Shown in pieces: positions 20,899 to 22,997 of a stretch of 64,000 nucleotides of DNA (position 1 is the stretch's first letter; each line of letters begins with the position of its first letter). Made by a program: the position numbers and the translations under genes. The stretch is taken from assembly GCF_003334305.1 (NCBI RefSeq), contig NZ_QOWS01000005.1; one strand, 5' to 3'. This DNA comes from Escherichia coli (GTDB lineage Bacteria > Pseudomonadota > Gammaproteobacteria > Enterobacterales > Enterobacteriaceae). The notes below the pieces were generated by a model that saw nothing but the letters and a program-made list of their open reading frames with translations, was not told the DNA's origin and did no database searches.

Positions 20899-21594
20899 AT
20901 GCTGAAGCGTTTCTTTATTACCGGTACAGACACTTCTGTAGGGAAAACGGTGGTTTCCCGCGCATTGCTACAAGCGTTAGCCTCCCAGGGAAAAACGGTT
21001 GCGGGATATAAACCCGTAGCGAAGGGGAGCAAAGAGACACCCGAAGGGCTGCGTAATAAAGATGCCCTGGTGTTGCAGAGTGTTTCAACCATCGAACTGC
21101 CTTATGAAGCAGTTAATCCTATCGCGTTAAGCGAAGAAGAAAGTAGCGTGGCGCACAGTTGCCCAATCAATTACACCCTCATTTCAAACGGCCTGGCAAA
21201 CCTGACCGAAAAAGTCGATCATGTCGTGGTAGAAGGGACTGGCGGCTGGCGCAGTCTGATGAATGATTTGCGTCCACTCTCTGAATGGGTGGTGCAGGAA
21301 CAACTGCCGGTGTTGATGGTTGTCGGTATTCAGGAAGGTTGCATTAACCATGCACTGCTAACAGCTCAGGCGATTGCCAACGACGGGCTGCCGCTCATTG
21401 GCTGGGTGGCTAACCGAATCAACCCAGGACTGGCGCATTATGCGGAAATCATTGATGTGCTCGGTAAAAAACTTCCGGCACCGCTCATTGGTGAACTGCC
21501 TTATCTGCCGCGCGCCGAACAGCGTGAACTGGGGCAATACATCCGCTTAGCTATGCTGCGCAGTGTGCTGGCGGTAGATAGAGTCACGGTGTAA
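20899..21594 (+). CDS. ynfK: Dethiobiotin synthetase paralog YnfK (BioD2)
   Basis: ORF trimmed to [17 protein letters not shown] (P-loop) giving 231 aa. Confidence 0.85.
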
Positions 21595-22803
21595 CGTCCG
21601 CGAGATTACCGACGCAATTACGCAGGCAATCAATAAACCGGGGAGTAGCTGATACTCCCCGGTCATTTCACATATCATCAATGTCGACATAATCGGCGCG
21701 TGCGTGGTTGCCGCCAACAGTGTCGCCATCCCGGTCAATCCGAGTAAAAGCGTAATTTCTTCGCCATCAGGGAACCATAATCCCAGGCTACGACCATACA
21801 ACATGCCAATGGCAAGACCGATAAATAGCGTCGGTGTAAAGACACCACCGGGTGCGCCGGAACCGCTACTCGCCAGCACGGCACACAGTTTACAAAGGAA
21901 GATCCCGGCAATGATCATTAACAGTGGCGGGGCAGTTAAAAAAGATTGTACGGTGCTATAGCCGTTGCCCCACACTGCAGGTGTGAACAGGGAAAGCAGA
22001 CCCACGATCAACCCGCCTAGTGCCAGTTGCCAGGGCGGCGCAAGTTTGAGACTCACAAATCCACGATGACAGGCGTTCATTAACGTTAACAACAGTGGTC
22101 CGCACAGACCTGCCAGCACACCTGTACTGATAATCAGCGCATAGTCACGAGCCTGAACCGACACTGAGAGTTGTACGCTGTAGAGTAACGCGTCGCTATG
22201 ATTAATCAGATTGCTAACCAGCAATGCCACGACGGCGGAAATAATCACCGGGCCGAGAGAGGCCAACATCATAGTGCCAAACAGCACTTCGGCTATAAAT
22301 AAACTGCCAGCAAGCGGGGCGCGATAGGCCGCAGCCATTCCCGCTGCGGCCCCACAGGCGATCCATAATTTCCACTCCTGGCGTGGTGTAAAACGTTGGG
22401 CAAAACAGGAGGCGGCAAGGGCAGCTAAAAGAATCATCGCACCTTCGCGACCAATTGCACTGCCGCTGGTTACTACCAGCAGAGAGGCAAGCGATTTAAC
22501 CAGGCTTGCTGCGTAATCAAACTGACCATCGGTTTGCAACGCTTCCATATAATCGGTCGGCGCATGAGGGCGTTGCTGGGTAAATTTCTGCCAGCCCATC
22601 AGCAACAAACCCGCCGCCAGTCCGCCGAGCGCCGGAGTTAGCAGCCGTCGCCAGGGGGAAAGGTTTGTCGCTGCATTGACCAGACTGCCGGAGTCATTAT
22701 TGAGGAACAACCACTCCAGTAGCAGCATCGCATGACGAAACCCGGCAACGGCAAAGGCCGCGAGAATACCGACGACTGTTGCGATAAGCAGACGGCGGAA
22801 CAT
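21547..22803 (-). CDS. clcB: ClC-family voltage-gated chloride channel ClcB
   Basis: ORF 21547..22863 trimmed to [12 protein letters not shown] giving 418 aa; 3' end overlaps ynfK convergently. Confidence 0.85.
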
Positions 22804-22997
22804 AGTGCGCAGATCCGGATAGATGTGTAGATGATGCATGAGCAGAAATGGGCAATGAAACACGGGCGACTATTTTGCGGCAAAAGAGGCCAGCCGCAAA
22901 AGCAGTGCGTGCTTTAAGAGATAAAAAAACGTGACACTGTAACCTATTATTGCCGGATTGCGCGTAATCGTCACCATCCGGCAATATTACGGTGATC

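Follow-up and report, generated by a model that had tools for sequence, protein, structure and literature searches.

A conserved dual-coding overlap between convergent ynfK and clcB in Enterobacteriaceae, and a candidate ynfK 3′ end structure within clcB

Described convergent overlaps and the ynfK–clcB locus

Conserved overlaps between convergent genes are a described class (Rogozin et al. 2002, as cited in Palleja et al. 2008, PMC2478687), and the convergent orientation is the only one that was found to tolerate long real overlaps (PMC2478687). The pair considered here lies in a 64,000-nucleotide stretch of Escherichia coli DNA, which we call the window and whose positions are used throughout. 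On its plus strand, ynfK (b1593, now bidA; 20899–21594) encodes a BioD paralog of 231 amino acids, as given by both the open reading frame (ORF) list and RefSeq, and on the minus strand clcB (b1592; 21547–22803) encodes a paralog of the CLC-family Cl−/H+ antiporters, 418 amino acids long when counted from the K-12 start. The two coding sequences are on opposite strands, both have homologs, their overlap is conserved, and both of the overlapping ends are under selection, which places the pair within the described class. As in that class, both partners are real genes whose 3′ coding ends are common to the two strands in several genera. At 48 nt, the ynfK/clcB overlap falls below the class of overlaps longer than 60 nt treated in PMC2478687 and, unlike in that study, we document directly how the two genes constrain each other codon by codon and how this constraint eases once one partner is lost.

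A second close relative is the mscL/arfA pair (Morra et al. 2023, PMC10070815), in which the genes stand tail-to-tail and one mRNA carries a 3′ UTR complementary to the 3′ coding part of its partner. ynfK matches this pattern, with its predicted 3′ UTR lying over clcB codons 381–403, and differs from it in that the coding sequences themselves overlap too. Antisense regulation and the involvement of RNase III have been demonstrated experimentally for mscL/arfA (PMC10070815), whereas the ynfK/clcB arrangement is known from sequence.

Two further comparisons concern how transcription ends between converging genes. In the bidirectional terminators and polymerase collisions reported by Wang, Watters, Ju, and Liu (2022, 10.1101/2022.10.23.513370), a stem-loop at the gene boundary is met by both polymerases, as is the stem-loop that we describe below downstream of ynfK. 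Unlike those elements, the ynfK stem-loop is located within the clcB ORF, 88–116 nt upstream of the clcB stop, so that it cannot be the clcB terminator and does not qualify as a bidirectional one, and its A/U tracts are weak and unconserved. Rho-dependent E. coli transcripts, in turn, were found to end just past stable stem-loops with no U run behind them (Dar and Sorek 2018, PMC6061677). ynfK resembles these cases in having a stable stem, likewise with no U run, at a gene end that is sensitive to bicyclomycin (BCM), but its stem-loop is embedded in the coding sequence of another gene rather than in intergenic DNA, and the steady-state 3′ end that follows the stem in the cases of Dar and Sorek has a predicted counterpart in ynfK. 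In the searchable literature, we found no discussion of the ynfK–clcB overlap, the two genes being named together in a single paper, in a table only, and nothing on "BidA."

Overlap conservation and dual coding

The original prediction, that the last 16 codons of ynfK and the last 16 codons of clcB overlap on opposite strands, is borne out by the six-frame ORF list, the sequence, and RefSeq. The 3′ ends of the two genes share 48 nt (21547–21594), made up for each gene of 15 sense codons and a stop, namely YnfK residues 217–231 plus stop on the plus strand and ClcB residues 404–418 plus stop on the minus strand. Codons in the overlap are exactly antiparallel, with position 1 facing position 3 and position 2 facing position 2; the ynfK stop TAA (21592–21594, plus strand) is ClcB Leu404 TTA when read on the opposite strand, and the clcB stop TAA (21547–21549, minus strand; tta on the plus strand) is YnfK Leu217 TTA. 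Both stops are read directly from the sequence, which excludes the mis-assigned stop position that would undo the overlap.

The overlap is already part of the reference annotation. The RefSeq record of strain A7, which is 100% identical, annotates the same 48 nt, and in K-12 MG1655, where clcB spans 1665315–1666571 (plus strand) and bidA/ynfK spans 1666524–1667219 (minus strand), the RefSeq overlap is also 48 nt. At its other end, on the minus strand, clcB is given an ATG start at 22803 in K-12 (418 amino acids) and a start at 22839 in the A7 record (430 amino acids), and the longest ORF begins with a GTG at 22863 (438 amino acids). Elsewhere in the window, the A7 record marks a GntR-family regulator as a pseudogene with an internal stop (about 47459–48157), adjoining a PTS/6-phospho-beta-glucosidase cluster.

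Searched against 5,426 complete E. coli genomes, a 151-nt sequence spanning the overlap matched 5,411 at 80% coverage or more, nearly all with at least 95% identity, and a 2.1-kb sequence surrounding it, which is 100% identical to strain A7, matched 5,416. A species scan with one genome per species yielded 80 Enterobacteriaceae loci. In all 80, ynfK is 696 nt long, and in 64 it is accompanied by a convergent, overlapping clcB, so the overlap is indeed present in other enterobacteria, a point that had been raised with the original prediction. Its length in these 64 loci ranges from 27 to 66 nt: 48 nt in 32 of them, 45 nt in 15, and 66 nt in 13, with 27 nt (three loci) and 39 nt (one locus) being rarer. 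The 45-nt overlaps belong to Citrobacter and Salmonella, and the 66-nt overlaps to Enterobacter and Leclercia. Beyond these genera, a search of 50%-identity clusters (an ordinary homology search having returned close Enterobacteriaceae relatives only) reached a 65%-identical YnfK ortholog, in which the ynfM-ynfL-mlc-ynfK order is kept, no clcB lies downstream, and the last 12 residues form a different tail; the juxtaposition of ynfK with clcB is therefore specific to Enterobacteriaceae proper. Two database titles encountered in the scan deserve comment. A contig titled "Chryseobacterium sp. 18061" (L037) has the mlc-ynfK-clcB locus in the form usual for Enterobacteriaceae, its YnfK being 88% identical, which suggests that this assembly is mislabelled or contaminated, and a locus titled "uncultured Raoultella" (L013) resembles Citrobacter.

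That the antisense frame stays open over such a length is by itself unremarkable. Stops in the antiparallel register arise only from the codons TTA, CTA, and TCA, which together account for 3.1% of codons in the genes of the window, and in 41 of 58 window genes, 15 or more codons counted from the 3′ end are free of stops in this register. What goes beyond chance, on the comparative sequence evidence, is the conservation across genera together with the codon-level signs of dual constraint. The window holds 13 convergent gene pairs, three of them overlapping. In the other two, tus (on the minus strand in the window) converges with fumC and folM with ydgC, each pair having stop codons that overlap in a 4-nt TTAA (2930–2933 and 6420–6423, respectively). 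Like ynfK/clcB, these pairs are convergent with common 3′ ends, but only the 4 nt of the stops are common, and amino acids are not dual-coded as they are in ynfK/clcB.

Dual constraint is evident first in the YnfK tail. Structural comparison relates YnfK to BioD with E = 3e-65, and the alignment to E. coli BioD covers residues 1–220, so the overlap comprises the last four BioD-like residues and an 11-residue YnfK-specific tail. Mean identity is 0.60 in the tail vs 0.91 in the core, and synonymous-site entropy near the 3′ end of ynfK is low only in codons 221–231, that is, in the overlap. Where clcB is present, the ynfK stop is TAA in 47 genomes and TAG in 13 and is never TGA; the codon for Val226 is GTA, antisense to Tyr TAC, in 55 of 60 genomes; and Arg228 is encoded by the rare AGA (37 genomes) or by CGA (16), antisense to Ser TCT/TCG. 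Ten genomes have cleanly lost clcB. In these, YnfK stays 231 amino acids long and keeps D227, R228, and A231, with Arg228 now encoded by CGC, CGT, or CGG, residue 226 often being Ala, and the stop being TGA in six of the ten. The tail length and residues kept after clcB loss indicate that selection acts on the YnfK tail itself, and across these sequences its codons are released when clcB is absent. As separate observations from the same 60 species, ynfK codons 78–88 (21130–21162, plus strand) have a synonymous-site entropy of 0.85 bits vs ~1.2–1.4 elsewhere, with no overlapping gene there, and codons 1–11 are likewise low (0.76 bits).

On the other strand, ClcB and ClcA are related by structure (E = 6e-27), and a HMMER comparison with 1kpl aligns residues 5–410 with 36–445. 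A BLASTP alignment of ClcB with ClcA ends at RDSIY410/GKPLY445, making ClcB Tyr410 (codon TAC, 21574–21576, minus strand, antisense to the YnfK Val226 codon GTA) the equivalent of ClcA Tyr445, which is the chloride-coordinating central tyrosine. ClcB residues 404–410 (LHRDSIY), although in the overlap, still belong to the CLC homology region. Another tyrosine, Y384, was considered as the central CLC tyrosine and rejected, as it aligns with ClcA Y419. Of 61 genomes, 55 encode Y410 by TAC, and L404 is TTA in 48 and CTA in 13, thus accounting for all 61; only these two codons occur because the ynfK stop requires them. The position of the ClcB stop, in turn, differs between genera, depending on which YnfK codon forms a stop on the opposite strand, L217 (TTA/CTA) or S218 (TCA), and the overlap accordingly measures 45, 48, or 66 nt. 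The ClcB end thus floats with these YnfK Leu and Ser codons, and the YnfK end is fixed. ClcB is variable beyond residue 413, and in the Escherichia strain E69 lineage (L004, 4670–4696) and in Superficieibacter (L065, L072) its stop comes directly after Y410 and R/H411; these 27-nt overlaps imply that the ClcB residues past the conserved tyrosine are dispensable.

These data leave practically no credence for a reading in which a mis-assigned stop makes the overlap an artefact of annotation or sequencing. Such a reading could draw on the many long database overlaps that are misannotations (PMC2478687) and on the 11 residues by which YnfK exceeds its paralog BioD. It is refuted, however, by comparative data already in hand: the stops are identical in ~5,400 genomes and the overlap recurs in 64 species, a conserved CLC residue (ClcB Y410) is inside the overlap, and YnfK without clcB is still 231 residues long with the D-R..A tail written in other codons. 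As judged from these comparisons, the ynfK–clcB overlap is genuine, old, and Enterobacteriaceae-wide, with both strands encoding selected residues.

A stem-loop within clcB and the end of ynfK transcription

No intergenic DNA separates the two genes, and the proposed ynfK 3′ end signal is therefore accommodated inside clcB. An 11-bp stem-loop, ACCGGGGAGTA-gctga-TACTCCCCGGT, is found on the plus strand at 21637–21663, 42 nt past the ynfK stop, where it occupies clcB codons 381–389 (TGEYQLLPG). The stem is perfect, with a predicted dG of −20.8 kcal/mol; for the 96 nt that follow the ynfK stop, folding gives z = −4.19. The hairpin is at +42 from the ynfK stop in every clcB-bearing locus. In an alignment of 56 sequences, paired cells amount to 92.6%, as against 19–44% in controls with slid partner columns, and the covariation score of pair 19–33 (CG in 33 sequences, GC in 15, UG in three) was reached by none of 500 shuffles. 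On the coding side, this compensatory change takes the form of ClcB E383 GAG with L387 CTC or Q383 CAG with CTG. Among 171 conserved four-/six-fold degenerate ClcB columns in 61 genomes, only two are codon-invariant, T381 (ACC) and P388 (CCC), and these form the base of the stem. Part of the hairpin conservation is owed to conserved ClcB residues (T-G...P-G). A stem-loop embedded in this way, with covariation at the level of codons, appears to be undescribed for ynfK but is a predictable outcome of gene packing.

Several observations bear on the strand to which the structure belongs. Read on the plus strand, the nine core pairs 13–21 include 43 G.U pairs and 14 mismatches; read on the minus strand, they include one G.U pair and 56 mismatches. 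The loop-proximal pair 22–30 has the opposite wobble bias, with 27 C.A combinations on the plus strand that are G.U on the minus strand, and for this reason the plus-strand assignment is favoured, not proven. In Trabulsiella, Lelliottia, and two genomes of the Citrobacter amalonaticus group, the arms are present directly after ynfK despite the loss of clcB, and in clcB-less C. amalonaticus a stretch of 7–8 T comes next; other clcB-less genomes carry canonical terminators 1–20 nt past the ynfK stop. Taken together, the sequence comparisons favour a stem-loop that belongs to the ynfK transcript, for which we propose the role of a 3′ end structure.

The hairpin might instead act on the clcB strand, as an intragenic attenuator or pause, or as a palindromic DNA site for a protein, a reading that we regard as very unlikely. 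It gains some support from a consensus scan, which calls the minus-strand hairpin of E. coli (21636–21664, followed by TTTATTGATTG) terminator-like, ~90 nt before the clcB stop, and from the 27 changes tolerated at pair 22–30, which are G.U on the minus strand only. The T-rich tail on that strand is, however, unconserved in other genera, Citrobacter having CTGCTGATCGCC in its place, the core pairs favour the plus strand 43 to 1, and arms that outlast a clcB deletion beside ynfK would make no sense for a clcB element. For a DNA-binding site, one may point to a weak genomic SELEX peak of HusR (YnfL) in the ynfK region, which was reported inside ynfK, between clcB and mlc, with an intensity of 72 (PMC12844172). 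By approximate conversion, the peak lies at about window position 21475 (K-12 ~1666643), and the publication names no HusR box there (PMC12844172); the hairpin sequence differs from the published HusR box and was rejected as one. The palindrome was likewise rejected as a REP element for sequence mismatch, and an Rfam scan of the locus returned no known RNA family. The sole Rfam match in the window is the Hfq-binding RNA STnc560 (44704–44917, plus strand, 282 bits), which begins ~12 nt past the dgcZ stop on the same strand and is antisense to all of the small-protein gene mgtT and the final bases of mgtS, another convergent RNA overlap.

Published transcript data place a Rho-dependent event at the end of ynfK. 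A Rho termination region catalogued by Adams et al. (2021, PMC7815308, Supplementary file 2) falls at K-12 1666514 on the minus strand and is classed there as primary for ynfK and antisense for clcB; converted via the stop position, the best-scoring position is ~21604 on the plus strand of the window, 10 nt past the ynfK stop. In their DirectRNA-seq data without BCM, 85 reads are counted upstream and 11 downstream, an ~8-fold fall at the ynfK 3′ end, and with BCM, the counts are 292 and 159, with read-through antisense into clcB (PMC7815308). The downstream/upstream ratio from these published counts thus goes from 0.13 to 0.54; upstream counts and pervasive antisense transcription go up with BCM as well. 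The Rho score is 4.2 (p = 1.5e-6), obtained with 800-nt counting windows in one culture (PMC7815308), so it cannot position termination relative to the hairpin. Among the Term-seq 3′ ends of the same study (Supplementary files 1 and 3; aerobic growth, in which ynfK expression is low), none is reported for ynfK/clcB (PMC7815308). Downstream of the stem, at 21715–21834, the C/G ratio is 1.4–1.6, only a modest enrichment in the place where a C-rich, G-poor rut site would be expected. For clcB, we found no conserved terminator or structure inside ynfK, the 147 nt past the clcB stop folding with z = +1.34 vs shuffles, and a C-rich minus-strand stretch at 21187–21346 is a weak hint of a rut site for that gene.

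Whether the stem-loop itself terminates transcription is the main point on which readings diverge. It could be a true Rho-independent terminator of ynfK, its U-tract degraded by the coding needs of clcB and Rho acting only as backup, and we give this reading some weight while considering it somewhat unlikely. A GC-rich stem of this stability at +42 from the stop is what such a terminator would offer, the same arms followed by T7–T8 make a canonical terminator in clcB-less C. amalonaticus, the canonical terminators of other clcB-less genomes point the same way, and without BCM only ~13% of the signal passes downstream. In E. coli, however, the immediate U-rich tract is absent: the plus-strand tail after the stem is TCATTTCAC, and the consensus scan calls no terminator on that strand. 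The response of the downstream/upstream ratio to Rho inhibition also speaks against it, and stable stems without a U run are a signature of Rho-dependent 3′ ends.

We lean toward an account in which the overlap is a frozen dual-coding arrangement, the ynfK 3′ end signal is written into clcB, Rho terminates transcription, and the stem-loop stabilises the resulting 3′ end. Once translation has ended at the ynfK stop and the ribosome has left, RNA polymerase would continue antisense into clcB, the stem-loop would form, and Rho would end transcription there or farther downstream; with a U-tract as weak as UCAUUUCAC, intrinsic termination at the stem-loop would be at most partial. 3′–5′ exonucleases would then trim the transcript back to the stem-loop, which we infer to protect the ynfK mRNA and to define its exact 3′ end.

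Antisense reach and implications of the overlap

The original prediction also held that transcription of each gene reads into the other, and this is right, as each mRNA contains its own stop codon and must therefore run antisense to its partner over 48 nt or more. The ynfK transcript probably reaches ~117 nt or more into clcB, given the hairpin end at 21663. According to published ChIP and expression data, ynfK is directly activated by FNR, as is ynfEFGH-dmsD upstream of clcB, and clcB itself is absent from the list of FNR-dependent genes. A search of the mlc-ynfK spacer for an FNR box with no more than one mismatch gave no match, so the FNR link draws on those published data only.

The original prediction further suggested that the overlap could couple the expression of ynfK and clcB, which we treat as a hypothesis. 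In its strongest form, the overlap would have been selected as a cis-antisense device under which only one of the two genes is expressed at a time or both mRNAs are degraded together, with colliding RNA polymerases or cleavage by RNase III as the mechanism, by analogy with mscL/arfA or excludons. We think this unlikely, both for the device and for its suggested mechanism. The complementarity that it would use is there, at least 48 nt by necessity and probably ~117 nt, and the arrangement is conserved across genera; as the units on both sides, ynfEFGH-dmsD and ynfK, are FNR-activated, convergent transcription should peak jointly in anaerobiosis; and E. coli mscL/arfA and the programmed collisions at convergent pairs provide precedents. 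On the other hand, clcB has been lost in at least 15 of the 80 species loci with ynfK intact, which argues that ynfK is independent of its partner, dual coding and the need for a ynfK 3′ end fully explain the conservation, and Rho normally halts ynfK transcription near the gene end, which would limit interference. A more specific version, to which we assign only a low probability, is a Rho-gated anaerobic antisense switch, in which FNR-driven ynfK transcription would oppose read-through from ynfEFGH-dmsD by collision or through a duplex of at least 117 bp. If such a switch existed, the alternative dethiobiotin synthetase and the ClcB Cl−/H+ antiporter would be mutually exclusive or co-degraded by RNase III, and the level of Rho activity would determine the extent to which ynfK transcription silences clcB.

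Under the account that we prefer, a frozen dual-coding overlap with a Rho-dependent ynfK end, the complementarity to clcB mRNA (48 nt obligatory, ~117 nt to the hairpin end) would instead be a by-product of packing with no dedicated regulation, and Rho would restrict the invasion of clcB by FNR-induced, anaerobic ynfK transcription.

In conclusion, the ynfK–clcB pair is an ordinary, well-behaved conserved convergent overlap, and nothing fundamental is changed by it. Its value is that of a clean natural case in which two genes and an RNA structure use the same bases. The codons around ClcB Tyr410 are fixed by YnfK, and vice versa, and the rare codons AGA, TTA/CTA, CCC, and GGG are held in place by the needs of the opposite strand, with the relaxation visible in lineages that lack clcB. 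For work on these genes in E. coli, this means that a "silent" recoding or a deletion of the clcB 3′ end would change YnfK or the 3′ end of the ynfK mRNA, and that a clcB knockout that takes codons 381–418 would truncate or destabilise ynfK.
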